Below, in pieces: positions 14,223 through 49,977 of a DNA stretch of 64,000 bases. Source of the stretch: Armatimonadota bacterium (GTDB lineage: Bacteria; Armatimonadota; HRBIN16). The stretch lies in assembly GCA_963677485.1 (NCBI GenBank), contig OY781964.1, positions 2,336,001-2,400,000 on the forward strand, given 5' to 3'. The translations under genes and the position numbers were made by a program. A model generated the notes under the pieces. That model searched no databases. It was not told the origin of the DNA and was given only the letters and a program-made list of their open reading frames with translations. Each line of letters opens with the position of its first letter. The first letter of the stretch is position 1.

Positions 14223-15512
14223 ATGCCTAAGTTTCTGCTCTTATTGCTGCGTTTGCTGGCATTTCCGCTTAAGGTGTACATGATGCTTGCTTGGTGGTTC
14301 CGAGGTCGAACGAAATGGATTGACCAGGTACTTTATCCCGGCATGTATTACCCATTGGTGTTAACCAGTCTGATTGGCAGTCTATACGCACAGTTGAACC
14401 AAGTGTCGAGTGGCCTTACCCCTCACAATGCGTTGCTGAATGGGTTGTCAACATCACCTATCCTATGCGGGTTACTTGCTTTGATCATGCTGGTGCCAAC
14501 GGCTATTGTGCTGGCGCGTGGCCGAACGCAGTTTCTATTAGCTCTGTTCATCTGCTCATCAACTGTGAGTGCTTTGTCGGGCAAATGGTACGCCGTGGTG
14601 GCTGTGGTCATTGCATATGCGTTACTCGTTGGGTTGCTTAAAAGACTCATGGTAAACGGCGATCTGATGATAACTAAACTCCACTTTGTGCTGGCGCTGA
14701 CCCTGATGATTCTCTTGGTAGTTGCCGTTGTCATGCCTTACACCCGTACATATGTCTATTTTGGAATGGTCTGTGTGATGGTGCTACTGTCGTACTGGTG
14801 TATCATCCCCTCGAACGTATCGACGTCTCCACGAATATCAATGATCCAACGGGCAAGGTCCACCGATGATGCCTGTCCACCATTTGCCAATGATGTGGCT
14901 ACAGTAGATGGCTGGGTGCAGGCTACACCAATCGAGTTTTGGGAACATCTGTGCCACAACTGGGAAATGAGTATCGTACGAAAAGATGAAACTACCGATA
15001 TTGACATGCAGTATATAAACCCACTCGATGAAGGTGTAGAAATTGCATGTGAAGCTCGATGGAGCCGTTTACTTAAAGAAAGTGAACTCGACCCAGATGA
15101 AGACGAATACGAATATGATGAGATATGGCACAGTTTCATCACCGGAAAGCGCGAGGTCAACGCGCATTGTGACGGTGGCAAATGTAAATGGCAGCTAGAT
15201 GAACTCAAGCCAAAATATGCCGCTAGCGATGTGACGGATGAATTAATGGCTCAGATGGACCACATCCTACAGGACAATATCACTCTGCTGAAGCAGATGC
15301 CGGTGGAGATGGTGCTGAACAGCCAACCCATAGTTTTATGTTACGGAGAGCCTAGGTCGAAAGTACATACGCTGTGGGAGTTGCAGACGCTTGACGGTGA
15401 GATTATGGTCAAGGAAAAGCCTACAGTCAACGTGACCGTATATACAGTTGCGTCTGGTAGCGACGGACAAAAATCTCTAGCGATTAAAACTGAGATGGTG
15501 CAACTTGGCTAA
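14223..15512 (+). CDS. Hypothetical membrane protein (multi-TM N-terminus, acidic soluble C-terminus)
   Basis: 429-aa ORF with about 6 hydrophobic segments; visibly more AT-rich than neighbours. Confidence 0.65.
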   Translation: MPKFLLLLLRLLAFPLKVYMMLAWWFRGRTKWIDQVLYPGMYYPLVLTSLIGSLYAQLNQVSSGLTPHNALLNGLSTSPILCGLLALIMLVPTAIVLARGRTQFLLALFICSSTVSALSGKWYAVVAVVIAYALLVGLLKRLMVNGDLMITKLHFVLALTLMILLVVAVVMPYTRTYVYFGMVCVMVLLSYWCIIPSNVSTSPRISMIQRARSTDDACPPFANDVATVDGWVQATPIEFWEHLCHNWEMSIVRKDETTDIDMQYINPLDEGVEIACEARWSRLLKESELDPDEDEYEYDEIWHSFITGKREVNAHCDGGKCKWQLDELKPKYAASDVTDELMAQMDHILQDNITLLKQMPVEMVLNSQPIVLCYGEPRSKVHTLWELQTLDGEIMVKEKPTVNVTVYTVASGSDGQKSLAIKTEMVQLG

Positions 15513-15667: not shown

Positions 15668-15838
15668 AAGCAGTTACAAGCATATCCGCTTCGAGCCAAA
15701 CCGTTTGGGTTGATCGGGCGGATCAGACCGATTCGGGTGATTCGCCTGATCCGCCCTATCCGTCCTTTAAAACCCATCCCCCCCTCAAACCGGACGCTGA
15801 ACCCCATAAACCGCCCATAGGATATGGGGGTGAACCAT

Positions 15839-16543
15839 ATGGTGAAACGTATAGCGAAGCTTTTTGAAGCAGGCCACTACCCCGAGCGCGGTCTTCAGAT
15901 CGAACCTCAGCAGATATCCCAAATCGTACAGCAGTTCCAGGCACCCATCCCCATCACGGTGGAGCACCTTGGGGGCCAATGGCGGCTAGGGGAGCTGGTA
16001 GAGGTGTGGCCGCACGGCGAGGAGCTGCTGGGCAGGCTGGAGCTGAGCACAGAGGCCGACGCGCTGCTTCAACGGCTGGGTATCTTCGGGCTGAGCGTGG
16101 GGCTAGACCCGGGCTGCGAGCGTCTGCTTGAGCTCTCGGTGACCGAGGCGCCGCGTGTGCCGGATGCCCGTATCTTTCGCAAGCAACAGGATCGCATATT
16201 TGGAGGTGAAATCCTGATGGAATCAACACATGAACTGCTTCATGTGGACCGGCAGTTGGAGCAGTGGCTTCAACAGGGGCGAATCACACCGGCGGCAGAG
16301 CCGTTCGCGCGTGCTCTGCTGGAGATGGGTGAGACGATGCAGTTTCGAGAGGGTCAGAACAGCGTGGCGGCTTTGTTCAGCCAGTTTGTGTCCGCGATGC
16401 CGCAGGCGGTGGTGTTCGGCGAGCTCACTCCTGGACAGGCAGCGGCGGGCGATGGGCTGAGCAGCACGCAGCGAGAGTTTCTGGCGAAGCACTGGTCGGA
16501 TGTGCCTGCGGAGCAGATTGCAGCGCATCTGGACCGAGAGTAG
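15839..16543 (+). CDS. Phage prohead protease/scaffold (Mu I-like)
   Basis: PITVEH (His) and GLSVGL (Ser) motifs, ELSVTEAP, GRITPA, VVFGE; position directly upstream of cement and capsid genes; RBS GGGGTG before ATG 15839 (ORF track start 15824). Confidence 0.8.
   Translation: MVKRIAKLFEAGHYPERGLQIEPQQISQIVQQFQAPIPITVEHLGGQWRLGELVEVWPHGEELLGRLELSTEADALLQRLGIFGLSVGLDPGCERLLELSVTEAPRVPDARIFRKQQDRIFGGEILMESTHELLHVDRQLEQWLQQGRITPAAEPFARALLEMGETMQFREGQNSVAALFSQFVSAMPQAVVFGELTPGQAAAGDGLSSTQREFLAKHWSDVPAEQIAAHLDRE
16217..16543 (+). CDS. Nested in-frame scaffold protein (Mu Z-like), 108 aa
   Basis: Strong RBS GGAGGTG at 16202-16208 before in-frame ATG 16217 (MESTHELL...). Confidence 0.65.
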   Translation: MESTHELLHVDRQLEQWLQQGRITPAAEPFARALLEMGETMQFREGQNSVAALFSQFVSAMPQAVVFGELTPGQAAAGDGLSSTQREFLAKHWSDVPAEQIAAHLDRE

Positions 16544-16552
16544 GAGGCGAAA

Positions 16553-16960
16553 ATGGCACGACTATCTGAGAACTGGGACACCCGCATGAGCGAGGGCCGG
16601 GTGATCTGCTATCCGGTGAAAGCCGATGCTGTGATCTACACCGGGGCGATACTGGTGCTGGACGCCGGTTATGTGCGACCCTCCGGTGCTGCGGAGACGG
16701 GCCTATTTGTAGGAATCGCCGCAGACAACGTGGATGCCACTGATCATACGAGCGGGGATTTGAAGGTGCGGGTGATCAAAACCGGCGCCCATAACTTCCA
16801 GGCCACTGGGCTGGTGGCAGCCGACCTTGGCAAGCTAACCTACGCCCCCAACGACGCCAGCGTCAGTCTGAGCGACACCGCTGGCCCCGAGGTGGGTTAT
16901 CTGGTTGGGCTGAACGCCAACGGCACGGTACGGGTGCGTATCGACCGCTCGGTATGCTAG
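16553..16960 (+). CDS. Capsid cement/decoration protein (DUF2190-like)
   Basis: 135 aa; YPVKADAVIYTGA, FVGIA, DLGKLTYA, VGYLV, VRVRI; lies between protease and capsid; AGGAGG RBS. Confidence 0.75.
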   Translation: MARLSENWDTRMSEGRVICYPVKADAVIYTGAILVLDAGYVRPSGAAETGLFVGIAADNVDATDHTSGDLKVRVIKTGAHNFQATGLVAADLGKLTYAPNDASVSLSDTAGPEVGYLVGLNANGTVRVRIDRSVC

Positions 16961-16975
16961 CGAAGGGAGAAGGCG

Positions 16976-17902
16976 ATGTTATCTAAATCCGAAATCGGTC
17001 CGCTTCTTCAAGCGGGGCTTCGAGCAGACTTCCATCGGGCTTACAGTGCCGCGATGGCCGATCTGCTGTATGGGCGTTTGGCCACGGTGATCAGCACCGA
17101 CCGCAGCGTGCAACGTTACGGCTGGTTGGGTGATGTGCCCACCATGCGCGAGTTTGTGGATGAGCGTCAGCCCGCCGGGCTACGCAGCCACGAATACAGC
17201 ATCGAGGACAAGGTGTGGGAGAGCAGCATCGCCGTCGACCGGCGTGCGATGGAGGACGACCAGTTGGGGGCTATCCGGCTGCGGGTGCAGGGGCTGGGAC
17301 GTGAGGCGGCCCGTCACAAAGACCGCGTGGTGGTGGGGTTGATCACCGGCGGTTTCACCGATCTTTGCTACGATGGCACGCCGCTGATCGGCAACACGCA
17401 TAGCGAAGGCGACAGCGGCACCCAGAGCAACGTGGGCAGCGATGGGCTCTCCGCAGAAAGCCTGCAGACGGCCATCGCCGCGATGATGGGTGTGAAGAAC
17501 GACCGAGCGGAGCCGCTGGGCATCCGGCCGGACTTGATGCTGGTGGGGCCTCAACTGATGTTCACCGCGCGCGAGCTGCTTCAAAGCGCGGTGGTGGTGG
17601 AGAAGGGCGACTCGTTGCGCACCCCCTACACCAACGTGCTGAAGGGGCTGGTCGATCTGGTGGTGTCGCCGGACATCACCGACACCAGTTGGTATCTGAT
17701 GGATACCAGTCGTCCGATGCGCGGCGTGATCCTGCAGGAGCGCAGCGATGTGCCGGTGGAGCTGGTGTCGTTGGAGGATGCCTCCCGCAGTGAGAGCGTG
17801 TTCCTGCGCGACCAATACCTGTTTGGCGTGCGAAGCCGGTTCGGCGCCGGTTACGGCCTCTGGCAGGCCGTGTGGGGCAGTACAGGCGGTTCCGGCGCGT
17901 AG
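16976..17902 (+). CDS. Mu-like major capsid protein (gpT family)
   Basis: 308 aa; YGWLGDVPTMREFVDER, WESSIAVDRRAMEDDQLG, CYDG, PLGIRPDLMLVGP, WYLMDTS, GYGLWQ. Confidence 0.93.
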   Translation: MLSKSEIGPLLQAGLRADFHRAYSAAMADLLYGRLATVISTDRSVQRYGWLGDVPTMREFVDERQPAGLRSHEYSIEDKVWESSIAVDRRAMEDDQLGAIRLRVQGLGREAARHKDRVVVGLITGGFTDLCYDGTPLIGNTHSEGDSGTQSNVGSDGLSAESLQTAIAAMMGVKNDRAEPLGIRPDLMLVGPQLMFTARELLQSAVVVEKGDSLRTPYTNVLKGLVDLVVSPDITDTSWYLMDTSRPMRGVILQERSDVPVELVSLEDASRSESVFLRDQYLFGVRSRFGAGYGLWQAVWGSTGGSGA

Positions 17903-17953
17903 GATGAGCCTCGCCCTGATGGAATATCGGGCGATCTGGTGATATTGGGGGTC

Positions 17954-17988
17954 AACACCGGCGCAGAATGTATATCCGCGCCGGTGTT
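17954..17988 (+). terminator. Stem-loop after capsid gene (possible terminator or mRNA stabiliser)
   Basis: aacaccggcgc-N13-gcgccggtgtt; weak U tract. Confidence 0.45.
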
Positions 17989-18023
17989 TCTGTGACAATG
18001 AGCGATCGAAAGGGAGGTGCGAG

Positions 18024-18311
18024 GTGGACCAACAGGCGTTCACGCAAGTGCTGACACTTCTGAGCGCAGTGCTGTCGGCACAGTGGGCTTTCACACGCTA
18101 TACGCTGCGCGCGTTGGAGCGTGTGATCCAGGCGCAGGAGGCCACGCTGCAGCAGCGGCTGGTTTCGGTGGAGTCGGCGGTGCAATGCAACGCGGAGGCG
18201 ATGTCCGAGCTGCGGGAGACGATCCGTGAGCTGAGCATGGTCATCGCCCTGCGGAACGGCAGCCCGACACTGGAGCCATCTGCACATCGTATGAAGGAGG
18301 AGACGAGATGA
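18024..18311 (+). CDS. Small membrane protein, 1 TM + coiled coil (holin-like)
   Basis: GTG start with GGAGGT RBS; N-terminal hydrophobic helix then heptad-rich region. Confidence 0.5.
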   Translation: MDQQAFTQVLTLLSAVLSAQWAFTRYTLRALERVIQAQEATLQQRLVSVESAVQCNAEAMSELRETIRELSMVIALRNGSPTLEPSAHRMKEETR

Positions 18312-18484
18312 ACCTGCTGACTAGTTGCTTCGGCAGAAAGATTTTGGAGGCTGCGAAACAGGCTTTGATTACACACATCAGTGAAGAGGTACGCCGGCTT
18401 GTGGACAAATACGCTCACGACCCTGAAGTGCTCTGCCAACAGCTTACGCAGTTCATCCTGCGCACGCTGAAGCTGGTGCAGTGA
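18308..18484 (+). CDS. 58-aa hypothetical protein absent from ORF track (MNLLTSCFGRKILEAAKQ...LKLVQ)
   Basis: AAGGAGG RBS at 18294-18300; ATGA overlap with the upstream gene and TGATG overlap with the downstream gene. Confidence 0.8.
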   Translation: MNLLTSCFGRKILEAAKQALITHISEEVRRLVDKYAHDPEVLCQQLTQFILRTLKLVQ

Positions 18485-18879
18485 TGAGCATCACCGTGAC
18501 GCTGGCCGATGTGAAGCTGCTGGCTTATGAAGAGGGCAGCACCAATGACGCTGCGGTGACGGCTTTGATGGAGCTACTTGTTCCTGCGATCGAGGAGCGG
18601 CTGGACAGCAGCCGCGTGACCGAATACTCCAGCACCAACTGGGTAAAACTGGCCGTCACCAAGATCATCGCAGGTGAGTGGGTGGCACGACGGGCCAGGC
18701 TGGTCGATCCTGAGAGCACCGTTGTTGACAGCACGGCCAGTTTGCCGTTAGCCGACCGGCGCGATGACCCCAGCGGTTTGATCAGCGCGGGCTGGAACGC
18801 TCTGCTTCCGCTGGTGAAGGACGAGTTCTTCTGGCTGGGTTCCGCCGAGTGGCTGGAGGGTTTGGATATGGAGGGGTAA
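18484..18879 (+). CDS. Probable head-tail adaptor/connector-like protein
   Basis: 131 aa; N-terminal VTLADVK, helical, VKLAVTKII; downstream of capsid. Confidence 0.5.
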   Translation: MSITVTLADVKLLAYEEGSTNDAAVTALMELLVPAIEERLDSSRVTEYSSTNWVKLAVTKIIAGEWVARRARLVDPESTVVDSTASLPLADRRDDPSGLISAGWNALLPLVKDEFFWLGSAEWLEGLDMEG

Positions 18880-18959
18880 GGGGCGAGGAGATGAGGAGAG
18901 CAACCATCGTTTCCTACTCGTCCTACTCATCTGACTTGTCGTACCTGCCAAAGCCCCTA

Positions 18960-19350
18960 TTGCCACTGTCCGGGGCGGTCTGTGCGCAGGCTTACGGCTA
19001 CGGAAGGTAATAGACCGCGCCGGTCTAGCGGTTAGCCAACTAGATTGGTTTCGGGATCAAGACCGGCGCGGTTAGGGGAAAACCGCCCCGGACATAGGCA
19101 AATCTTCCCTGCTAAAGCCCAGAATGGCTGTGTCCGGGGCGGTCGGTGCGCAGGCTAGCGGCTGCAATGGGCTCGAGACCGCGCCGGTCTGGCGGATAGC
19201 CATGAAGATATGTTTCGGCAATCAAGACCGGCGCGGTTAGGAGAAAACCGCCCCGGACATAGGCAATCAAGGCCGGCGCAGTGGGAAAACCGTCTTGTTC
19301 CCATCCTCCCCATCCGTGTCATCCGCGTAATCCGTGATTCAGACAGTCCG
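18960..19350. repeat. Mosaic cluster: two family A MITEs plus 9-mer ATCCGTGTA..TTCAGACA repeat
   Basis: tgtccggggcggtc...accgccccggacataggc twice; atccgtgtcatccgcgtaatccgtgattcagaca at about 19312-19345. Confidence 0.9.
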
Positions 19351-19400
19351 GGTATGCCCCCGGTCTCAGGCAATCAGGCCTGCGCTTTGCTACAATAGGG

Positions 19401-20684
19401 TTGATGACAAACAGCGATATTCCACATAGTGTGCCCCTCTCTTCAGAGGGCCTTTGCGCGGGTTACGACCGGCGGGAGGTGCTGCGTAACATCAGCTTTG
19501 AACTGCACTCTGGCGAGTTTGTGGGCATCATTGGTCCCAACGGATGCGGCAAATCTACGCTCATCAAGGCGCTGACAGGTATCCTGAAGCCCACTGGCGG
19601 ACGTGTTCTGGTTCAAGGACAGCCGTTGAGCGAACTGAGCGTGCGCGAGGTGGCCAGACGGATGGCGGTGGTGCCTCAGCATGAGCAGGTGGCGTTTGGC
19701 TTCAGTTGCCGCGATGTGGTGATGATGGGCCGCGCCGCCTACACAGGCATGATGGGCCACTATACAAACAAAGATAAACTGGCCGCTCAGGCAGCTATGG
19801 AGCGTATGAGTGTTTGGGAGTTTCGCGACCGGCCTGTGCAGCAGCTTTCGGGCGGTGAACGCCAACGGGTGGGTCTGGCCCGAGCGTTGGCGCAGCAGTG
19901 CGACCTGCTTCTGCTGGATGAGCCGACCTCGCACCTGGATATCAGCCACCAGATCAGCCTGTTAAGCGAAATACAGAGCCTGCGTAACGAGGACGGGCAC
20001 ACGGTAGTGGCGGTGTTGCATGAGATCAACATGGCAGCCGAGTTCTGTGACCGCATCCTGGTGATGCATAAAGGCAGCGTCGTAGCGGATGGCAGCCCGG
20101 CTGAGGTGATCACCCCGCGGATGTTGAAGCGGGTGTTCGCACTCGATGCGCTGGTGCGGATGAACCCGGTGACCGGGCGTCCGCATATCCTGCCCAAAGG
20201 TTTGCCGGTGGTCGACACGGCTGGCGAGGGTGCGCGGGTGCATATGGTGATTGGCGGTGGCAGCAGCACGCCTTGGATGGCCGCGCTGGTGTCTGCCGGA
20301 TACAGCGTATCCGCCGGGGTGGTAAACCTGCTGGACAGCGACGAGCAGAGCGCGCATGAGATGGGTGTGGAGCTGGTGGTGGAAGCCCCTTTCACGCCGA
20401 TCAGCGAGGAGAGCATCCAGCAGCTTCGCGATGTGGTGCGTTTGTGCCGTGCTGTGGTGGTTGGTCCTGCCTGGCTGGGTTTCGGTAATCTGGCCAACCT
20501 GCATGTGGTGCTGGAGGCGCTTCGGAGTGGTGCCTGTGTGCTTCTGGCCGGTGCCGATCTGGAGGGGCGCGACTACACCGACGGTGAGGCCAGCCGCATC
20601 TGGGCGGAGCTGATCCGTTTAGGAGCCGTGGTGGTAGAGACGCCCGATCAGGCCGTGGCCATATTGCAACAGCGCATCGGTTAG
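19401..20684 (+). CDS. ABC transporter ATP-binding protein, cobalamin/iron-siderophore (BtuD/FecE-like) with C-terminal extension
   Basis: Walker A GPNGCGKST, LSGGERQR, LLLLDEPTSHLD; C-terminal VHMVIGGGS..GVVNLLDSD domain. Confidence 0.9.
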   Translation: MMTNSDIPHSVPLSSEGLCAGYDRREVLRNISFELHSGEFVGIIGPNGCGKSTLIKALTGILKPTGGRVLVQGQPLSELSVREVARRMAVVPQHEQVAFGFSCRDVVMMGRAAYTGMMGHYTNKDKLAAQAAMERMSVWEFRDRPVQQLSGGERQRVGLARALAQQCDLLLLDEPTSHLDISHQISLLSEIQSLRNEDGHTVVAVLHEINMAAEFCDRILVMHKGSVVADGSPAEVITPRMLKRVFALDALVRMNPVTGRPHILPKGLPVVDTAGEGARVHMVIGGGSSTPWMAALVSAGYSVSAGVVNLLDSDEQSAHEMGVELVVEAPFTPISEESIQQLRDVVRLCRAVVVGPAWLGFGNLANLHVVLEALRSGACVLLAGADLEGRDYTDGEASRIWAELIRLGAVVVETPDQAVAILQQRIG

Positions 20685-20751
20685 TAGGTTGCAGCCCGGT
20701 GACATCCCCTGGGCACGTTAATCTCCTGATTGGCATATCGGCATGATTCTT

Positions 20752-20782
20752 GGGGGAGGTTTTTCGGAACCTCCCCCTTTTT
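20752..20782 (+). terminator. Intrinsic terminator between ABC ATPase and portal genes
   Basis: gggggaggtt-N6-aacctccccc followed by T5. Confidence 0.75.
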
Positions 20783-20818
20783 GCGTATCTATGGTTCTGG
20801 TGAAACAGAGGTGCGGCG

Positions 20819-21925
20819 ATGGAGTTCTTTTCCGAGATTTGGCGGCGTCTGCAGCGCCGAAAAATGACGCATGAGCAGGTGCCTGTGTGCGACGGGATAG
20901 GCTGGAGTGGCGCGCTGGTCTGGGATGGCGGATTGAAACAGCCCAGCCTGACGGAATGCCTTGAAATGCTGCAGGACGCCCAGGTTCAGGCGGCGCTTCA
21001 GACCAAGAAGCTAGGCGCTCTGAACGCCGAGTGGCATATCGAGCCGGGTTATGACACCGAAGCCAGTCTGCGCGCAGCCCGACTGGTGAAGTATGCTCTG
21101 GAGCAGTTGAAGGGCAGCCTGGGGCGAGTGCTGTGGAACGCAATGGATGCGCTGGCGTTTGGTTATTCCGTGCAGGAGATCAACTACCGGTTGTGTCAGA
21201 AGGGGGAATTCGCCGGCAGCGTGATCTGGCAGAGTGTCAAGGCGAAGGACCCTCGGTTGGTCAGTCTGAAGGTGGATGAGTATCTTAACCTCACCGGTAT
21301 CGGATGCACCGATGCGGAGGGGCGCGAACTTCAGGTGCCGATGGAGAAGTTCGCGGTGTATATCTACAACCCGCGGTTTGAGAACCCCACTGGTCAAAGC
21401 GACTTGCGAGCCGCTTTGATGCACTGGAAGGCGAAACGGCGGCTGCTTCAGAGCTGGCAGCTCAGCCTGGAGCGGTTTGGCGCCCCTACCATGAAGGGCA
21501 CATTGCCGCGTAATGTTTCCGACTACGAACGTGAGGAACTGCTGCATGTGCTGCAGAGGGTTCACGAAAACAGTGCGATTGTGGTTCCAGACGACACGAA
21601 GGTTGAGCTGCTGGAAGGGCAGCCAAGCATCAACAACAGCTACCTGACCGCCGTGCAGTTTCACAACAAAGAGATCGCCAAAGCGATCATGGGGCAGACC
21701 CTCACCACAGACGAAGGATCGCGGGTGGGCAGTCTGGCTCTGGGCAAAATCCACTTCGAGGTGCTGCAGTTCTACATGCGCTGGCTGAGGCGTGAGCTGG
21801 CGGAGCAGCTGGTGGAGGAACAGTTGATGCGCCGGCTGGTGGAAATGAACATCCCCGATGCCGCGGTTCCTAAGTTGGTTTGGGTCGAATCGAAACAGGA
21901 GGCGGATAGTGAGCTCCATTCTTAG
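20819..21925 (+). CDS. Phage portal protein (DUF935 / Mu gp29-like), compact 368 aa
   Basis: DAQVQAAL, DALAFGYSVQEI, NPTGQSDL, ERFGAP, EIAKAIMGQTLTT, GSLALGKIH; GAGGTG RBS. Confidence 0.92.
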   Translation: MEFFSEIWRRLQRRKMTHEQVPVCDGIGWSGALVWDGGLKQPSLTECLEMLQDAQVQAALQTKKLGALNAEWHIEPGYDTEASLRAARLVKYALEQLKGSLGRVLWNAMDALAFGYSVQEINYRLCQKGEFAGSVIWQSVKAKDPRLVSLKVDEYLNLTGIGCTDAEGRELQVPMEKFAVYIYNPRFENPTGQSDLRAALMHWKAKRRLLQSWQLSLERFGAPTMKGTLPRNVSDYEREELLHVLQRVHENSAIVVPDDTKVELLEGQPSINNSYLTAVQFHNKEIAKAIMGQTLTTDEGSRVGSLALGKIHFEVLQFYMRWLRRELAEQLVEEQLMRRLVEMNIPDAAVPKLVWVESKQEADSELHS

Positions 21926-22382
21926 TGTTCAAGATCGTGATCATCTGATCAATCACCCTACGGTGAAAGCCGCGCTCGCGAGCCGGTTCAAGCGTCTGTT
22001 GTCGGATGTCCGTGCCAAGGGATATCCCCTGCTGGTTTGGGAGGTATACCGCAGCGAACAGCACCAGCAGGAGCTCTATTGCCAGGGTCGGAGCAGTGTC
22101 TACCTTCGCAAGATGGGTGTGCCAGCCAACCTGATCGCACAGGCCCGATTGATGGGATACAACCCCGATAAGCCTCGCATCACCAAACAACGGTTGGCTG
22201 GGATGCACTCCCAAGGCCGTGCGATGGATTGTGTATGGCTTATCAAGGGCCAGCCGAGTTGGAATGCACCCGACGAGTGGTGGCAGTGCTACAGCGCTGT
22301 GGCTAAACGCCTGGGCCTGAGCTGGGGCGGCGACTGGAAGATGCGCGACATGGCGCATGTTCAGTGGGAAAAGAAGCTGTGA
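21909..22382 (+). CDS. M15-family peptidoglycan peptidase (L-Ala-D-Glu endopeptidase type), endolysin-like
   Basis: EVYRS..QQELYCQGR, H-x6-D (HSQGRAMD), WGGDW..DMAH; AGGAGG RBS before GTG 21909 overlapping the portal end. Confidence 0.9.
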   Translation: MSSILSVQDRDHLINHPTVKAALASRFKRLLSDVRAKGYPLLVWEVYRSEQHQQELYCQGRSSVYLRKMGVPANLIAQARLMGYNPDKPRITKQRLAGMHSQGRAMDCVWLIKGQPSWNAPDEWWQCYSAVAKRLGLSWGGDWKMRDMAHVQWEKKL

Positions 22383-23115
22383 GGAGCGGAGGAGTGGAGG
22401 AGAACGGGAGGCAGGAGAGCAGGAGGCAGGAGAGCAGGAGATGAGGAGAGAGGAGAATGGAGACAGGAGAATGGAGACAGGAGAATGGAGACAGGAGGCT
22501 GCTCCCTGGGAACGCCAATCTCCCGATTGGCATCTCCCGTCCCTATCCTCCCCATCCGTGTAATCCGTGGTTCAGACAATACGGGCGGGTCGGACGTAGG
22601 CAATTATTACCTGTCAAAGCCCGTACTGCCTATGTCCGGGGCGGTCTGTGCGTAGGCTAGCGGTTGCAGAAGGCTCGAGACCGCGCCGGTCTGGCGGTTA
22701 GCCTGAAGTCATTTGTCTCGCCTTGGATCAAGACCGGCGCGGTTAGGGGAAAACCGCCCCGGACGTAGGCAATTATTACCAGCCAAAGCCCAGAATGGCC
22801 ATGTCCGGGGCGGTCTGTGCGCAGGCTAGCGGCTACGGAAGGCTCGAGACCGCGCCGGTCTGGCGGTTAGCCATGAAGCAGCTTGTCACGCCTTGGATCA
22901 AGACCGGCGCGGTTAGGAGAAAACCGCCCCGGACTTAGGCAATCAAGACCGGCACGGTTGGGGAAAACCGCCCCGGACGTAGGCAATCAAGACCGGCACG
23001 GTTGGGGAAAACCGCCCCGGACGTAGGCAATCAAGACCGGCACGGTTGGGGAAAACCGCCCCGGACGTAGGCAATCAGGACCAGTGTAGCGTGGGAAACT
23101 GCCCCGGACATTGGC
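22383..23115. repeat. Mosaic cluster: GGAG heptamer run, CCTGGGAACGCCAATCTCCCGATTGGC REP, 9-mer repeat, two family A MITEs and tandem ~45-bp units
   Basis: ggagaca/ggagaat run at 22383-22500; REP at 22506-22531; family A from about 22628 to 23112. Confidence 0.9.
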
Positions 23116-23179: not shown

Positions 23180-26098
23180 CTAGAGGGCTGCGCCTGCAGC
23201 TCCGAAGTTCTGGTCGATGATGACGTAGTCGAACAGGTTCACTGAACCGGTGCAATCAAGGTCAGCCATTGCGTCTGCTGAACCGAAGTTCTGGTCAAGA
23301 ACTACGATGTCAAACAGGTTGACTTGGTTGTCGCCGTCAGCGTCGCCGTTCACTGGGGCCATGGCCACAGGAACGTCAACATCACCAACCACTACGCCTG
23401 CGGATTTAACTCGCAGCCAGTGGGTGCTCTTGGCGAGTACGTCGTAGGTGCCGGGTACAACATCGGCCACTACGAACTTGGCATCGGCATCCAAAGTAGC
23501 GGTGACGGTCTTCTTGACGTCCGCACCCTGCTTCAGAACGACATCAATGGACTTGCCTGCCATGTTAGCAGCGGTTAGTGCTGCGTCAAGGTAGGTTCCA
23601 GTGATGGAGCCGATGGTCTGGTTGTATTCGTAAGCACCGATGTCAGGCTTGGTGCCTGCGGGCATCGGGCGGACGTTGTCGTTCACGTCAAAGGTTCGGA
23701 TGCTGTCGATCGCTTTTCCGAAAGCAAGCTTCGAATCGGCGGTCAGGTAACCGGTTGCTGGGTCTAGCTTCGCATCGCCAACCACCGTGTCAGCAGGCAT
23801 GCCGAGAAGGAAGTCACCAGCGGTTCCACCGCGGACGATGTTTCCTTTTCCTACTAGAGGAACAGTGGCTGAGCACTGCAGGCCGCCGGTTGCATCAAAG
23901 ATGCAGTAGTTGGCGGTGACAACGTCGTTTCGAGCTGCCTGGCCAGAGACCAGGTTAGCAGGGGTTCCACCATAGATGGTGCAGTTGTCAAGGGTAATGG
24001 TGGAAGGTGCAGTTGAGTTACTGGTCAGGTTCAGGAGAGAACCGCCGTAACCGGTGCCCTGCCAGATGGTGTTTCCAGCGGTCATAGAGATAGGAGTTGC
24101 ATTAGCGGCGGCACCAGCGATGGCGCGATAGCCACCGGAACCACCGTAGAATGCGCATTTGCTGTATGTCGTGATGGACGGGCCAGAAAGAGCTGCACCG
24201 TCGTTGTTGCAACTGACAAACTCATTGGTGGCTGGGACTTTCGAACAAGTCAGCCATTTGAGGTTCAGTGTGCCGCCAGCGTTGCGTACGAACACGATGG
24301 CGCGGTCAGTTCCGTCTGTTGGGTTTTTCAGCAGTGGATCAAGGTTCAGCTTCTGGGTTGCAGATACACCGTTGATGTTCAAGACACCTGTGGCACTTCG
24401 CATGATCGCGAATAGTGCGCCGCACTTGCCCTGGACGTCCATGTCATTAACGGTGAGTGTGCCATCGCCAAGCAGAATGAAGTTGTTGACAGCGCAGTCT
24501 TTGATGACTGGCTTATTCATGACGGCAACATGCCCGGTAGCGCAGTTGATATTTGCGCCTCCCTGGAAGACAGCACCGTTGAATGTGGTGGTTCCACCAA
24601 CCATGTTAATCCCAGACTGGAAGATGGAGCCATTGAAGGTGCTGGTGCCATTCTGTAGTTGCTGGCCGCCTTCGAACTTGGTGGTGGCATCGCAGGTCAC
24701 GTTACCGCCGTTGTTCAAAATGCCGATGCCGCCGCCGTTCCAGTTGGTGCCCACTACAGTAGCGTTACCGCCCTGGTTGAGCATGGCCCAACCTGTGTCG
24801 CTAAGGGTGCAACCGGTCAGGTTGACCTGTGCGCCGCCGGCCAGGTTCATGATACCCACGTTGGAGTTACCAAACGTGGTGTTAGTTATGTTGTATGTTC
24901 CTGGTAAGCCCACATATATGCCCCACCACTTGTTTAGCAGCAGTGCATAGTCTTTGCTGTTGGTCAGGGTGCAGCCGGTGGCATTCACAGTCAGTGATGC
25001 AGGGACTGTTCCTTGCGCGTTGATAGCACCGACCGTCACGTTTCCGGCGACAGTGGTGTTAGTTAAGCCAACAGTTAAGTTGCTTGTTGCGGCGGCGGGG
25101 GCAATGTTGATTCCGCTGTTGTTGTTAAGAGAAGCAGTACCGCCGGTCAGGCTAACGGTGCCGTCGGAAACTTGCACACCGTTGGTGACGTTGGATTCAA
25201 AGTTGCTTCCAGTCGATGTCAGAGAACCACCAGCGACTGATACGCCGTTAGCTCCAGCCTTCTTCAGTCGTACATTGGTCAGAGTGATGGCGCAGTTACT
25301 GCCATTGAGGAGGTTGGTGCCCAGTCGTGGGCCGTTGGTGGGAAGACAGCCGCCGTCCAGCGTCAGGTCTTGGAATGTCATGTTGCTTACGCCGGCAGCG
25401 ATTGGCTTGCCTTGGAAGCGCATGTAGTTCAGGATGTAGTAGCCGTTGGTGCCAGGGCCGTCAATCCTAAAGTTGGCGGCGGTACCGAGTGCGGGCATGT
25501 CAAAAGTGAAGATGTTCCATGCACCAGCAGTGGCTGTGAAGTGTTTGGAGTTACCTTCAGAGATACCGCCAGTGGAACCCATCCAGAAAATCTGGAAATC
25601 GCCACCGATGGAGCTCCATACACGCCATGTGCAGGTTACAGGAGCGCTGCCCAGGTTGATGTTAGGCGTCGGTGCGAATGGGTCACCACCGGTGACGTCC
25701 CAGCGGATACCGCCGTCAGCACCAGCCACATAGGACTTGGTGACGTTGTTACCAGCAGGCCATCCGGTCACGACTGATTCTGTGGTGAACTCAAATCCGG
25801 GAAGGTTGGCACCCGGCTGTGGACCAACAAGATTGAAATAGCACTGGATCGAAGTTAAATCCTTGCCGCGACCCTTAATGGTGAGGTTTTTAGTAGGCGC
25901 TAAAATTGCGATGTTGCTGTCACCTATTTCGAGGTGGGTAGCTTTGTCTACGAAAATGGTGTCACCGGCTGCTGCTGAGTTAATCGCGGAGGCGATAGTT
26001 CCGCCACCCGAAACTGTAATGGTGGCAGCTTGCAGACCCATAGTGAGACCCATCGCGCAGATGGTAGCCAACGCGAAGGCGAATGGCTTGTTGCTCAT
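23180..26098 (-). CDS. Secreted right-handed beta-helix protein with inserted CBM-like domain, choice-of-anchor-Q-like motif and C-terminal dockerin-like domain
   Basis: Start MSNKPFAF with RBS AAGGGAGAGG; signal peptide; TIASAINSAAAGDTI; N/G/T-rich repeats; RP..PDIGAYE; GDADGDNQVNLFD...ADLDCTGSVNLFD. Confidence 0.82.
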   Translation of the reverse strand: MSNKPFAFALATICAMGLTMGLQAATITVSGGGTIASAINSAAAGDTIFVDKATHLEIGDSNIAILAPTKNLTIKGRGKDLTSIQCYFNLVGPQPGANLPGFEFTTESVVTGWPAGNNVTKSYVAGADGGIRWDVTGGDPFAPTPNINLGSAPVTCTWRVWSSIGGDFQIFWMGSTGGISEGNSKHFTATAGAWNIFTFDMPALGTAANFRIDGPGTNGYYILNYMRFQGKPIAAGVSNMTFQDLTLDGGCLPTNGPRLGTNLLNGSNCAITLTNVRLKKAGANGVSVAGGSLTSTGSNFESNVTNGVQVSDGTVSLTGGTASLNNNSGINIAPAAATSNLTVGLTNTTVAGNVTVGAINAQGTVPASLTVNATGCTLTNSKDYALLLNKWWGIYVGLPGTYNITNTTFGNSNVGIMNLAGGAQVNLTGCTLSDTGWAMLNQGGNATVVGTNWNGGGIGILNNGGNVTCDATTKFEGGQQLQNGTSTFNGSIFQSGINMVGGTTTFNGAVFQGGANINCATGHVAVMNKPVIKDCAVNNFILLGDGTLTVNDMDVQGKCGALFAIMRSATGVLNINGVSATQKLNLDPLLKNPTDGTDRAIVFVRNAGGTLNLKWLTCSKVPATNEFVSCNNDGAALSGPSITTYSKCAFYGGSGGYRAIAGAAANATPISMTAGNTIWQGTGYGGSLLNLTSNSTAPSTITLDNCTIYGGTPANLVSGQAARNDVVTANYCIFDATGGLQCSATVPLVGKGNIVRGGTAGDFLLGMPADTVVGDAKLDPATGYLTADSKLAFGKAIDSIRTFDVNDNVRPMPAGTKPDIGAYEYNQTIGSITGTYLDAALTAANMAGKSIDVVLKQGADVKKTVTATLDADAKFVVADVVPGTYDVLAKSTHWLRVKSAGVVVGDVDVPVAMAPVNGDADGDNQVNLFDIVVLDQNFGSADAMADLDCTGSVNLFDYVIIDQNFGAAGAAL

Positions 26099-26465
26099 TG
26101 AGAATGACCTCTCCCTTAGAAAATTAGTAGTGATAGATTCATCCCTTTGCACGGGGACGGTCGGGCTGCATGAGCAAGTGCCAGCGAACCACAACCATAT
26201 CTCTATTATTTACCAGATTTAGTGGAAAACCCTTGCATTTCTGATAATTTAGTATGTTACATATTATCATGTTTATGTAACATGCGGGGTGGTGTGTGGA
26301 ATATGACAGGTGATAACGATAAGTTTATCACGGGCTGGTGCTTTGGATTGGATTGTGGGAGAGGCTATTTACGGGCGATGATTAATGTTAGACGTCTGTT
26401 TTGGCGGCATGTATTCAAAATTGATGATACAGATCCGGTGGGATGGCCTTTGTGAGCCATTTGGC

Positions 26466-47303: not shown

Positions 47304-49973
47304 ATGCACAAATTCGTTCTCGTCGCCGCTCTGCTCGCGGCACAAATAACCGCCTTTGCTGCTCCAGATAACAGCGTCTTTTTCGACTTCAAAAAGCCCG
47401 AGGTTGTGGCCGAGTGGAAAGCCGCAAATGACATCTCGAAACTCACCCACACCCCGCAAGGGATGCTCGTGGTGCCGAGTGGTGCAGATCCGTATCTCCG
47501 AGGACCGATGCGGAAATACCCAGTCGGCTGGTCGGTACGCGCCACCGTGCGCCTCAACACGCCTATCGGCGGAAGCACGGAGCTGTTCTGGTTCACCCCC
47601 ACTAAAGGCACAGACGCCGCCAACATGGTGCAGATCAACACCTCGGCAGGCAAGGGAATTGAAGCCAGTGCCTGGATCACTTCTTTACCAGCCATCACCG
47701 GTATCCGTATCGATCCGCCCTGCAATAAGCCCGTCACCATAGAGTGGCTGCGGTTAACACCCATGGCTCCACTGCCCAAACTCACCTTGAAACCCTCAAA
47801 CTGGGCCAACTGGAATGTGGAAAAAAGTCTGACCAGCGGAGCTCTGAAGATGGAGATGGGCCAGCCAGCCCTTGGTAACTACAAGCTGAACTACCGCGGG
47901 AAAATGGTCGCTCAGGGATGGAACCGCCCGGCGATCAGTTGGGTGGACAAGAGCGGTGCTAACCGTCTGCTGAACATCGGCAGCAAGGCCACCATCAGCA
48001 GCTCTGCATCTGCCATCAAACTGACCAGCAAGACCACCGATCTCGAAGGTGCCACCTGGACCTATGTGCAGACATTCGCGACCGTGACTGGCCGTAGTGA
48101 ACTACTGAAGGTCAGCACCACGGTGAGCGTAAACCGCGACCGCAAGGTTCGGATGCTGCCTGCGATGGTGTTCTTCAGCCCCAAACGGGAGCGGGCACTC
48201 TTCCCCGGCCTGGAGTATCTTGATCCGAAGGATACCAGCAGCAGCAAAGCGGACATCGAAAGCCCTGGCTATCAGCGGCTGACGCCCGACCCGCTGCGTG
48301 TGACGGTACCGGTGATGGTGATGCAGGCCGACAACAAGTATGTGGCTATGGCGTATCAACCAAGCCCGAATACCCAACCGGTGTTTGACAGTCCCGACCG
48401 GCAGTTTGGATCTATAACCCACGTGATGGGGCTGCTGGTCAGCAACTTCATTAAAACGGAGCGTGATTCTGGACAACTGCTCAGCCGAATGCCGGATGAG
48501 ATCAAGGCCAACAAGCCCATCACCATCACGGCCTGGATGATGGCCGGTGACTCACCCGATGTGCTGACCGCCGTGCAGCGTTGGGTGCAGATCAATGGCT
48601 TGCCGAAAATACCCAACAGCGGATTCGACGTGAAGTCCTACTCGCGGTTGACCGCGCATTCCTGGCTGGACACCGATATCCGTGACGGCTTGAAATACAG
48701 ACACGCCACTTGGCCTGGCATGATTTGGCCAGCGAATAACGCCGTTGATGGCCCCATGATGCAGCTCTGGTTGGCCGACCAGGTGCAGGATGCCTACCTG
48801 GCAGACCGGTTGCGCAAGAACACAAAAGAGACAATGCAGCAGATCGCACCGGCTGACTACTGGTTCGCATCGGTGGGGCACATCCGAACCTATGCGGAGA
48901 CGCTGGTATTTGGTGACATCCCCCAAAACCAGGCCAAAGTTCATCAGGTGGGGCTGGATGCCATCAAGACTTTCGAGCCCAACGGCACATTAATATATAG
49001 GAAACCCGCTGGCAAAGACGATCTAGCACGCACCCAATGGGAGCGTCACGCCAACGGCTTCGCCAGCCGACCGATCCAATATCTCTACACGCAGGCAATG
49101 TACACCGGTGACCGCAAGATGCTGGCCGAAGCGGTTCGATTGACCGACGCCCTCGACCGCTATGACTACTCCGCTCCGCGCGGTGCACAGACCTGGGAGA
49201 TGCCTCTGCATTGCCCGGACATCATGGGCAGCGCGCAAATGGTGGAGTGCTATCTGAGTGCCTATAAAGTCACTGCCGACAAGAAGTATCTCGAAAGGGC
49301 CATCCGATGGGCATGGAGCGGCGTGCCATTCCTCTACCTCATACCCCCCACCGACAAACCCATCGGGCTGTACGCCAGCGTGGGCGTCTGGGGTGCCACG
49401 CAGTGGATATCACCCGACTGGATGGGTCGGCCAGTGCAATGGTGCGGCATGATGTATGCCGAAGCCATGCGTAAACTGGCTCAGGTTGACCCCAAGGGAC
49501 CCTGGGATCAGATATGGCGCGGTGTGACCACCAGTGCCATCCAGCAGGGCATCACGCCCGAATATGATCCCAAACTGCAGGGGCTGTTCCCCGATTCCGT
49601 GGATCTGAGAATGCAGACACCGTTCCCCGTGGCCATCAACCCGGGCACGGTTCAGAGCCAAGCCGCACCCATGTATACCGGAGTGCCATTGGGCGACAAT
49701 GTCTACATCCGCGAGCGGAGCTGGTCAGTGTTCGCACCCGGCAAAATCAACAAGCCGCGCGTCTCACCTGACTCCATCACCATCCAAGTCGACCTTTGGC
49801 ATGAAGGCACCGTGCTGGTGACGAGTGTCAACAAAGCGGTCACGGTGTTACTTGATGGCAATCTTGTGGAAGGTTCCTACAATCGCTCCAAAAACTATGC
49901 TGGTGATACCGGCAACTGTCTGATCCCTGTCGGCAAAGGGCAGCACACCATAGAACTCTCAGGAGGCCGGTAG
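47304..49973 (+). CDS. Large secreted hypothetical protein: CBM-like N-terminus plus probable (alpha/alpha)-barrel glycan-active domain
   Basis: 889 aa; signal peptide; YKVTADKKYLERAIRWA helix-barrel motif; first gene of the operon with the four paralogs. Confidence 0.55.
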   Translation: MHKFVLVAALLAAQITAFAAPDNSVFFDFKKPEVVAEWKAANDISKLTHTPQGMLVVPSGADPYLRGPMRKYPVGWSVRATVRLNTPIGGSTELFWFTPTKGTDAANMVQINTSAGKGIEASAWITSLPAITGIRIDPPCNKPVTIEWLRLTPMAPLPKLTLKPSNWANWNVEKSLTSGALKMEMGQPALGNYKLNYRGKMVAQGWNRPAISWVDKSGANRLLNIGSKATISSSASAIKLTSKTTDLEGATWTYVQTFATVTGRSELLKVSTTVSVNRDRKVRMLPAMVFFSPKRERALFPGLEYLDPKDTSSSKADIESPGYQRLTPDPLRVTVPVMVMQADNKYVAMAYQPSPNTQPVFDSPDRQFGSITHVMGLLVSNFIKTERDSGQLLSRMPDEIKANKPITITAWMMAGDSPDVLTAVQRWVQINGLPKIPNSGFDVKSYSRLTAHSWLDTDIRDGLKYRHATWPGMIWPANNAVDGPMMQLWLADQVQDAYLADRLRKNTKETMQQIAPADYWFASVGHIRTYAETLVFGDIPQNQAKVHQVGLDAIKTFEPNGTLIYRKPAGKDDLARTQWERHANGFASRPIQYLYTQAMYTGDRKMLAEAVRLTDALDRYDYSAPRGAQTWEMPLHCPDIMGSAQMVECYLSAYKVTADKKYLERAIRWAWSGVPFLYLIPPTDKPIGLYASVGVWGATQWISPDWMGRPVQWCGMMYAEAMRKLAQVDPKGPWDQIWRGVTTSAIQQGITPEYDPKLQGLFPDSVDLRMQTPFPVAINPGTVQSQAAPMYTGVPLGDNVYIRERSWSVFAPGKINKPRVSPDSITIQVDLWHEGTVLVTSVNKAVTVLLDGNLVEGSYNRSKNYAGDTGNCLIPVGKGQHTIELSGGR

Positions 49974-49977
49974 GCAT

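Follow-up and report, generated by a model that had tools for sequence, protein, structure and literature searches.

A tail-less head and DNA-packaging gene set of Mu-like phage origin, apparently fixed in the chromosomes of Armatimonadota

Known particle systems and the Armatimonadota locus

Gene transfer agents (GTAs) are encoded by phage-derived chromosomal genes which, in the published accounts, are inherited vertically across many host families under purifying selection, lack integration and replication genes, can be spread over several loci and include a lysis function (PMC5026251, PMC5721377, PMC11841831). Phage-inducible chromosomal islands of the capsid-forming kind (cf-PICIs) are mobile islands of 10-18 kb with integrase/recombinase, replication and regulation modules and an HNH nuclease, with no lytic genes, and they release tail-less, DNA-filled capsids that join foreign tails (10.1101/2025.02.11.637232). 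The present study concerns a stretch of 64,000 nucleotides (nt) from an Armatimonadota bacterium (assembly GCA_963677485.1, contig OY781964.1, positions 2,336,001 to 2,400,000), referred to here as the window, in which a locus at 15824-22382 encodes the head proteins of a phage particle. With a probability of roughly 0.6, we read these genes, together with a large terminase gene (TerL) situated elsewhere in the genome, as an old, chromosomally fixed and vertically inherited tail-less head and packaging system, which would descend from a phage with a Mu-like head and be a tail-less relative of the GTAs.

The set is like the GTAs (the RcGTA type of Alphaproteobacteria, BaGTA and VSH-1) in consisting of chromosomal phage-derived particle genes with no tyrosine integrase within 60 kb in the five genomes searched, in being inherited vertically under purifying selection (as seen in the host context of TerL, in the trees and in ratios of non-synonymous to synonymous substitution rates, dN/dS, of 0.03-0.34) and in occupying several loci, TerL lying 2.26 Mb off here and being likewise unlinked from the capsid gene in host families f10, f28 and f34. 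It is unlike them in that no tail genes were found beside the head genes; every described GTA known to us has a tail and delivers DNA, and the known GTAs are few. Each known GTA arose by a separate domestication of a phage. Whereas the RcGTA head is of the HK97 type, the head encoded here is of the Mu gpT type, in another host phylum, and the small terminase (TerS) appears to have been lost in the family of the window.

With the cf-PICIs the system has in common a module confined to the head, in which capsid, protease, portal, adaptor and TerL are present and a tail module is lacking; TerS and the connector of that module are present in other families and were not found in the window's genome. 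Unlike the islands described there, the set has no nearby tyrosine integrase (the tyrosine type being the one searched for), is inherited vertically from split loci and has a wall hydrolase of the M15 or M23 type, whose gene lies within or next to the clusters in genera g1 (that of the window) and g3 and in five genomes of other families; it also gives no sign of mobility, its trees following the host families and its divergence equalling that of housekeeping genes. Portal_Mu, a gpT-type capsid, a gpI-like protease-scaffold and the ancestral order TerL-portal-protease-capsid are held in common with the head module of Mu-like phages, from which the locus differs in that gpF was found only in a separate prophage (at ~4.97 Mb), in the lack of detectable tail genes and in that phage capsids reach at most 38% identity. 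Encapsulin nanocompartments are HK97-fold shells without portal or terminase, unlike the present set with its portal, adaptor and co-diverging TerL. In its inheritance, the system is nearest to the GTAs and, in its parts, to the cf-PICIs, and it is a member of neither because defining features of each class were looked for and not found here.

No report of a GTA or of a tail-less domesticated capsid in Armatimonadota was found in a literature search, subscription journals and supplementary files being outside its reach. If correct, the reading given above would add a further deep domestication of a phage, in a poorly studied phylum, in which only the head and the packaging motor were kept. It poses the question of what use could be made of a DNA-filled capsid unable to inject, for which tail theft (as in the cf-PICIs), protected extracellular DNA for uptake, and phage interference are the options, and any of the three would widen the picture of bacterial reuse of viral parts. 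With the terminase gene placed in a host operon and megabases away from those of the capsid, such systems will escape prophage finders and scans confined to one locus.

The unlinked large terminase

In another family of the same phylum, genome G021 carries the orthologous portal gene directly downstream of a 482-aa TerL (PF03237, PF17289). Used as a query, this TerL retrieved a 393-aa homologue of 42% identity from the window's own genome (G000:C1:94210-95391), so that the dispersed terminase which the earlier note on this DNA had proposed to look for was indeed located. The protein matches phrog_2, the terminase large subunit, with an E value of 4e-38, and an alignment of 21 sequences shows conservation of the Walker A, Walker B and nuclease Asp motifs. 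The gene is flanked upstream by an amidase gene with an AMIN-like N-terminus and a GerMN-like gene, and downstream by an RqcH/NFACT-like gene (names that were read from the sequences, not from family searches). This neighbourhood is conserved across genera g1, g2 and g3, and in g3 TerL begins ~40 nt after the GerMN gene.

The head locus

Every reading frame of the head locus proved to be open where the earlier note had placed it (Table 1), and the identities proposed there for the protease/scaffold, cement protein, gpT-type capsid, portal and M15 peptidase were borne out by family matches and, for the protease, by an assemblin-type structural model. The 239-aa protease product gives a weak match to the head maturation protease family phrog_976 (E 1.8e-4), by way of its C-terminal part. 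Its AlphaFold model, computed from 23 homologues, has a mean predicted local distance difference test score (pLDDT) of 81.6, and all ten of the Foldseek matches with E <= 1e-3 were herpesvirus assemblin-type proteases, a fold common to herpesviruses and tailed phages. His48 and Ser91 are invariant in 23 of the 23 aligned sequences. From the model, the protein is best described as a putative compact prohead protease with a C-terminal scaffold-like domain; the alignment of homologues favours the ATG at 15839 as the start, which gives the 234 aa originally proposed. The decoration gene that follows keeps its position in all clusters examined.

Three of the small products (95, 58 and 132 aa) have no match in Pfam, PHROGs or NCBIfam. 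The model of the 132-aa protein (pLDDT 76.9) gave no significant match to the PDB with Foldseek; when 48,161 chains were compared with it by VIA-align, the 30 best rows consisted almost wholly of phage neck, adaptor or portal-tail chains, among them the P74-26 neck (Z 8.2), HK97 gp6 (Z 6.9) and the Mu neck subunit (Z 5.8), with an RcGTA virion chain ranked 33rd (Z 5.0). Its predicted role as adaptor, which agrees with the first assignment, rests on these VIA-align scores, whose values are middling for a helical protein. The 95-aa protein, initially taken for a transmembrane protein, has merely a weakly hydrophobic N-terminal helix (the highest Kyte-Doolittle mean over 19 residues is 1.34), and over 60 aa it is 62% identical to the product of the gene at the same position in genus g2. 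The 58-aa frame is without a homologue in g2, and in the sister genome G001 an indel of 2 nt disrupts it; it is therefore doubtful as a gene.

The spacing of the genes is consistent with the translational coupling that had been suggested: they stand 9 and 15 nt apart at two places, overlap by 4 nt at two others, and share 68 nt where the portal and M15 genes meet. Each head gene occurs once in the window's own genome (G000, 5.22 Mb). Three paralogues of the M15 peptidase, with 39-41% identity, are present there, every one of them inside an ordinary HK97-like prophage. The shortness of the portal and protease had been regarded as a mark of streamlining. In relatives, the portal measures 354-451 aa and the protease 223-284 aa, so that these sizes are usual across the whole lineage and are not signs of recent streamlining.

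Table 1. Positions in the window of the head genes and of the features lying among and behind them.
Feature	Position	Strand	Length and basis
Prohead protease with C-terminal scaffold-like helical domain (predicted)	15824-16543	+	239 aa; model fold, phrog_976
Capsid decoration / virion structural protein	16553-16960	+	135 aa; phrog_1731, E 2.8e-21, full length
Major capsid protein, Mu gpT type	16976-17902	+	308 aa; PF10124 E 9e-65, phrog_371 E 8e-68
Small protein, possibly holin-like	18024-18311	+	95 aa; weakly hydrophobic N-terminal helix, coiled coil
Doubtful open frame	18308-18484	+	58 aa; frame broken in sister genome G001
gp6-like head-to-tail adaptor (predicted), would bind portal	18481-18879	+	132 aa; predicted-structure comparison
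Two copies of a genome-wide MITE-like repeat	18960-19265		blastn; copies 18960-19100, 19131-19265
FecE/BtuD-type ABC ATPase with C-terminal extension	19401-20684	+	427 aa; PF00005 E 7e-38; long-form PRK09536-like
Terminator-like hairpin between ABC and portal genes	20752-20777	+	11-bp stem, 7 G-C pairs, then TTTTT
Mu-type portal	20819-21925	+	368 aa; PF06074 E 4e-64, profile positions 6-307 of 336
M15 (VanY-like) peptidoglycan peptidase, endolysin-like	21858-22382	+	174 aa; PF13539 E 2.6e-8, phrog_465 endolysin E 6e-18
Two more MITE-like repeat copies, downstream of M15 gene	22627-22941		copies 22627-22771, 22798-22941 (genome 2358627-2358771, 2358798-2358941)

Conservation and selection in the bacterial family

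Of the 17 further genomes from the same bacterial family, 16 gave a match to the capsid gene, including every one of the 13 from genus g2, and all 17 gave one to TerL; with the single copy in the window's own genome, this answers the conservation check proposed at the outset. The order protease-decoration-capsid-95-aa gene-adaptor-ABC ATPase-portal is kept in the sister genome G001, in five g2 genomes (G015, G013, G008, G007 and G003) and in G006 of genus g3, and the portal is followed by the M15 gene in genus g1 and in G006. Genus g2 has additional genes in the locus for proteins of 354, 67 and 105 aa, the last of which is similar to a stopper-like protein of ~101 aa located after the adaptor in other families. 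The 354-, 105- and 139-aa proteins of G015 have no match in Pfam or PHROGs, and the 67-aa protein has none in PHROGs, the only collection against which it was compared.

Identity to g2 stands at 58-62% for the capsid, 55-58% for the portal, 50-54% for the ABC ATPase and 48-50% for TerL, beside 57-59% for the host protein MnmG and 35-47% for the host neighbours of TerL; judged by these values, the element diverges at the pace of host genes. Against G001, dN/dS (computed with our own Nei-Gojobori script) lies at 0.03-0.14 for the head genes at a synonymous divergence (dS) of 0.36-0.96, the host neighbours giving 0.03-0.19. The individual values are 0.14 for the protease, 0.07 for decoration, 0.037 for the capsid, 0.026 for the 95-aa gene, 0.11 for the adaptor and 0.041 for the portal, with 0.047 for TerL. 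In four pairs of g2 genomes, all ten locus genes give 0.03-0.34. A ratio computed for the RqcH-like gene was set aside, its codons having been aligned out of frame. Ratios so far below 1, for which the earlier note had also asked, point to purifying selection on the locus and, on this codon evidence, exclude a decaying remnant for the lineage.

Genome G015 of g2 (contigs C6 and C8; L137, L138) contains further Mu-like elements, in which another capsid reaches 46%, a terminase 31% and an M15 protein 51% identity; in this family the domesticated set is therefore accompanied by Mu-like phages that are active or recent.

Trees and inheritance

Trees of capsid and TerL were built for 48 genomes with both genes, namely 14 of the bacterial family and 34 picked from nine other families; G259 (partial capsid), G002, G004 and G213 (one gene absent from the fetched DNA) and the matches from f13, f7 and f15 were left out. 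Each tree requires nine changes of family label, the minimum for ten host families, as compared with a mean of 30.6 after shuffling, in which none of 200 trials was as low. Both trees have a deep split in common, with f1, f10 and f34 on one side, and the pairwise distances of the two proteins correlate with r = 0.92 over 1128 pairs, though f1, f28, f34 and much of f10 have the two genes at unlinked sites.

As a host reference, an MnmG tree (a single gene, a quick search and 61 genomes, with the row for G037 disregarded on account of a wrong reading frame and a branch length of 10) groups f1 together with f10 and f34 in a single clade of good support, and f18 with f43. It repeats the g2 groupings of the capsid and TerL trees (G005 with G009; G008 with G016; G007 with G010 and G013). 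It also nests f7, f26 and f39 among the carriers, f26 having no capsid match in 15 genomes and f7 only distant matches (36-42% identity) in 5 of 17, while f39 was not tallied separately. The comparison of capsid phylogeny and host that the earlier note had called for ends in broad agreement, in that the capsid and TerL trees recover every host family and broadly agree with the MnmG tree.

Distribution in the phylum and contiguous clusters

At a threshold of E <= 1e-20, the capsid was found in 91 and TerL in 98 of 301 sampled genomes of the phylum, and ~30% carry both. The tallies are alike for the two genes in f5 (5/5), f18 (6/7), f21 (14/15), f25 (4/5) and f28 (13/19), while no capsid gene was found in f4 (0/27), f17 (0/12), f24 (0/15), f26 (0/15), f23 (0/10) or f19 (0/8). 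Most carriers hold a single copy. The nearest homologues are chromosomal genes in other families of the same phylum, at 43-62% identity. Among sequenced phages, 321 records match the capsid, all below 60% identity and the best at 38%, and IMG/VR viral contigs reach 29-44%; the earlier concern that the closest relatives might lie in complete phages was thus not borne out. TerL and capsid are unlinked in f1, f28, f34 and much of f10.

Seven genomes hold a contiguous set in the order (TerS-like)-TerL-portal-protease-scaffold-decoration-capsid-variable gene-adaptor-stopper-like-(membrane protein)-hydrolase. In G229, the product of the variable gene that lies between capsid and adaptor (L085:553-1323) is lectin-like, with a match to Laminin_G_3 (E 9e-19); its equivalent in G015 (L025:18149-19213) is the gene for the 354-aa protein, which has viral clusters as its nearest ones in the protein atlas (score 0.92, no more than a lead), and the variable products may be head fibres. 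The ~101-aa stopper-like protein has a marginal match to the lambda gpW type (Phage_attach) in G157, and in G229 and G157 its gene is followed by one for a small tail-anchored membrane protein. In five genomes of other families (G149, G107, G021, G229 and G036), the cluster has a hydrolase gene of the M15 or M23 type at its end or close to it.

Upstream of TerL in six of the seven contiguous clusters lies a gene for a helix-turn-helix protein of 120-131 aa, which matches small-terminase PHROGs with E 1.2e-7. A profile search for this TerS-like gene found none in the window's own genome and none in 17 of the 18 family genomes, with one marginal match (E 0.005), and no conserved reading frame was present on the TerL strand upstream of TerL in the 11 family genomes inspected.

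Search for tail, integrase and other phage genes

In the window's own genome, the sheath, tape-measure and Mu gpF families have matches only inside four ordinary prophages, and no gpF (PF04233) was found outside the prophage at 4.974 Mb. A Pfam search placed no tyrosine integrase nearer than 84 kb to either locus, in keeping with the earlier statement that genes of a whole phage are missing from the surroundings. Over five genomes (G000, G149, G229, G157 and G085) the nearest tyrosine integrase is at least 66 kb away, serine recombinases, DDE transposases and replication genes not having been searched for. Among the 17 other genomes of the family, three Pfam families returned sheath in 0, tape measure in one (weak) and Sipho_tail in 0. 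Sipho_tail is insensitive, for it was absent from all 18 genomes and also missed the siphovirus-like prophages of the window's own genome, and its null therefore carries little weight. Neither the seven contiguous clusters nor the loci of the bacterial family were found to contain or adjoin a tail gene, and opposite-strand or unrelated genes come after the cluster in the reading-frame listings of G149, G229 and G157.

The prophages of the genome comprise two near-identical HK97-like elements in opposite orientation (~0.648-0.662 and 1.786-1.800 Mb), a related third (1.474-1.488 Mb), each of which has an M15 gene beside a gp6-like adaptor gene in the head-tail joining region, and a myovirus-like element at ~4.955-4.980 Mb with a terminase (508-aa frame), a portal (520-aa frame), a gpF domain, a sheath and a 1071-aa tape-measure frame.

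Proposed mechanism and alternatives

On the observed gene identities, split, conservation, purifying selection and co-divergence with the host, the view of the earlier note that this is no decaying prophage but a retained, rearranged, multi-locus particle system derived from a phage is supported, and each of the checks proposed there that was run (terminase, conservation, dN/dS, trees and homologues) came out in its favour. Of the options then named, namely a GTA, a tail-less DNA-packaging particle and a lysis-released compartment, the second appears to fit best, because no tail genes were found with the three families or by inspection of the clusters.

The ancestral set would have been contiguous, as it still is in several families, from TerS to the M15/M23 hydrolase. 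In the bacterial family of the window it would then have been broken up: TerL would have come to stand alone in a host operon (amidase, GerMN, TerL, RqcH-like), the small terminase would have been lost, and the portal gene, accompanied by M15 in two of three genera, would have moved behind the gene of an embedded host ABC ATPase. The head genes would assemble decorated capsids with a portal, and TerL, with its conserved ATPase and nuclease motifs, would load DNA into them, most likely without specificity, as the small terminase is gone. The portal vertex would be closed or prepared by the adaptor, and the particles would leave by hydrolase-assisted lysis.

Several observations weigh against this account. 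In G004, which retains TerL, no capsid or portal gene could be found; 2-4 capsid copies occur in some genomes of f28; and on the MnmG tree the carrier state needs five changes, a patchy distribution that implies several losses or gains, or a less simple history. No M15 homologue was found in four of the five g2 genomes tested, so lysis by the M15 enzyme cannot be general. The gpW-like stopper and the 354-aa protein of g2 are absent from genus g1, and the g2 extras were not found in the window's own genome. A divergent tail locus may lie elsewhere in the genome, the tail search having consisted of three Pfam families and inspection of the neighbourhoods. We know of no described mechanism by which a tail-less capsid alone would deliver DNA.

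Further difficulties come from the window's own strain, whose TerL ends at an in-frame TAG where G001 has Gln, with the loss of the last 42 codons (G000:C1:94081-94212). The stop falls just before a C-terminal H-D-D motif, the D-D of which is invariant in 20 full-length sequences. Terminase nucleases have a third acidic residue near the C-terminus, and if this is the residue lost, the nuclease is probably crippled in this strain. The 42 codons beyond the stop are still in frame, 93% identical to those of G001 and under a dN/dS of 0.07, which makes the mutation very recent. Three DNA runs, taken from two studies, gave contigs that span the site and show no difference, so the TAG is no error of this assembly, even if the runs may stem from the same strain. 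Runs labelled with an organism name contain 95-97% of the words sampled from the locus. A single RNA run on the TerL locus (X11) covered upstream repeats only and is uninformative on expression. With TerL short of its last 42 codons and genus g1 devoid of stopper and small-terminase genes, the system may be impaired in the strain of the window.

Beyond the packaging system itself, a bolder and distinctly tentative proposal is that many families own, as part of the host, a factory of tail-less DNA-filled heads that either steal tails from phages or are taken up without them, which would constitute a novel path for exchanging genes, and perhaps for interfering with phages, that originated independently of all known GTAs and is of comparable evolutionary depth.

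Among the alternatives, the one that survives best, unlikely as we consider it, is that the heads join the tails of resident or infecting phages in the manner of the cf-PICIs while being fixed in the host, with gene transfer, interference with the tail donor or both as the outcome. It would suit the purifying selection on the gp6-like adaptor (and, in most lineages, on a gpW-like stopper) in a set that encodes no tail that could be found, and the four tailed prophages of the window's genome could supply tails. The gene set also matches the packaging module listed for cf-PICIs, whose tail-less DNA-filled capsids are reported to take foreign tails (10.1101/2025.02.11.637232). A fit to ever-changing phage tails would nonetheless be hard to sustain over the divergence of whole bacterial families, the stopper/connector has been lost in the window's genus, and neither a tyrosine integrase near the loci nor a sign of movement between hosts was found.

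Less probable again is a use of the capsid that involves no DNA, whether as a nanocompartment, a storage shell or a secreted decoy, with TerL kept for an unrelated host role in its new operon. The retention of portal and adaptor, the co-divergence of TerL and capsid (r = 0.92) and their parallel presence across families are the marks of a packaging machine and speak against it, as does the absence of a portal from encapsulin shells, even though TerL is unlinked and in g3 is placed behind GerMN as if part of that operon, no small terminase was found to be left in the bacterial family and no tail was detected.

A mobile satellite or recent defective Mu-like prophage, akin to a cf-PICI island and not fixed in the host, is largely refuted and to our minds very improbable. 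Its content would indeed be a head-only packaging module, and extra copies or related Mu-like elements do occur in some f28 genomes and in G015; yet TerL occupies the same host operon in three genera, the capsid and TerL trees follow the host families exactly, the divergence equals that of housekeeping genes, five genomes have no tyrosine integrase within 60 kb, and the best capsid matches reach 38% in phages and 44% in viral contigs. A non-functional remnant that has by chance not yet decayed, to which the TAG in TerL of the window's strain, the unstable 58-aa frame, the stopper and small-terminase genes lost from g1 and the missing head genes of G004 might point, is just as improbable and is refuted for the lineage as a whole by dN/dS that stays at 0.03-0.34 for each gene and each pair tested, with dS reaching ~1 or more, frames intact in 16 of 17 family genomes, conserved catalytic motifs in TerL and protease, and the recency of the TAG itself.

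The embedded ABC ATPase, repeats and neighbouring genes

The division of the head genes into two units by repeats of the miniature inverted-repeat transposable element (MITE) type, an ABC ATPase gene and a terminator had been correctly described: a 141-nt copy of the MITE-like family gives 241 blastn matches in the window's own genome, the ATPase belongs to PF00005, and a strong terminator-like hairpin follows its gene (Table 1). The ABC gene is no chance interruption: it lies directly upstream of the portal gene in genera g1, g2 and g3 (50-54% identity), overlapping it by 4 nt in G006 and standing ~27 nt from it in G015; from this position in three genera it follows that the gene has been in the locus since the ancestor of the bacterial family. 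The simplest reading is that the ATPase is a host transporter subunit trapped in the locus by an ancestral rearrangement, and it may have a regulatory or functional tie to the portal gene. The sole strong FecCD permease of the genome (3668676-3669680) has no ATPase or binding-protein gene adjoining it and is the likely partner of the embedded ATPase. A role of the ATPase as a substitute packaging motor was considered and rejected as the main explanation, given that a true TerL exists and that the orphan permease needs such an ATPase.

A repeat region is present upstream of TerL as well (L046 2800-3500), with a summed contig depth of ~100-fold in the mapped runs. Directly upstream of the head locus, the window holds a gene for a 429-aa multi-pass membrane protein with no family match (14223-15512), whose GC content of 0.49-0.51 compares with ~0.58-0.62 around it. 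In G001 the gene is absent and the AcrB and protease genes are only ~190 nt apart, and it looks like a recent insertion.

Downstream, on the minus strand, lies the gene of a 1004-aa secreted beta-helix protein with a dockerin-like C-terminus (23180-26194), of which G001 has a second, partial copy. Membership of this neighbour in the system was rejected, as only its C-terminal end has a counterpart in the g2 gene that stands between adaptor region and ABC gene, and a shared host domain accounts for the likeness. Farther along the window, at 47304-58611, five large reading frames follow one another on the plus strand (889, 725, 724, 765 and 712 aa).

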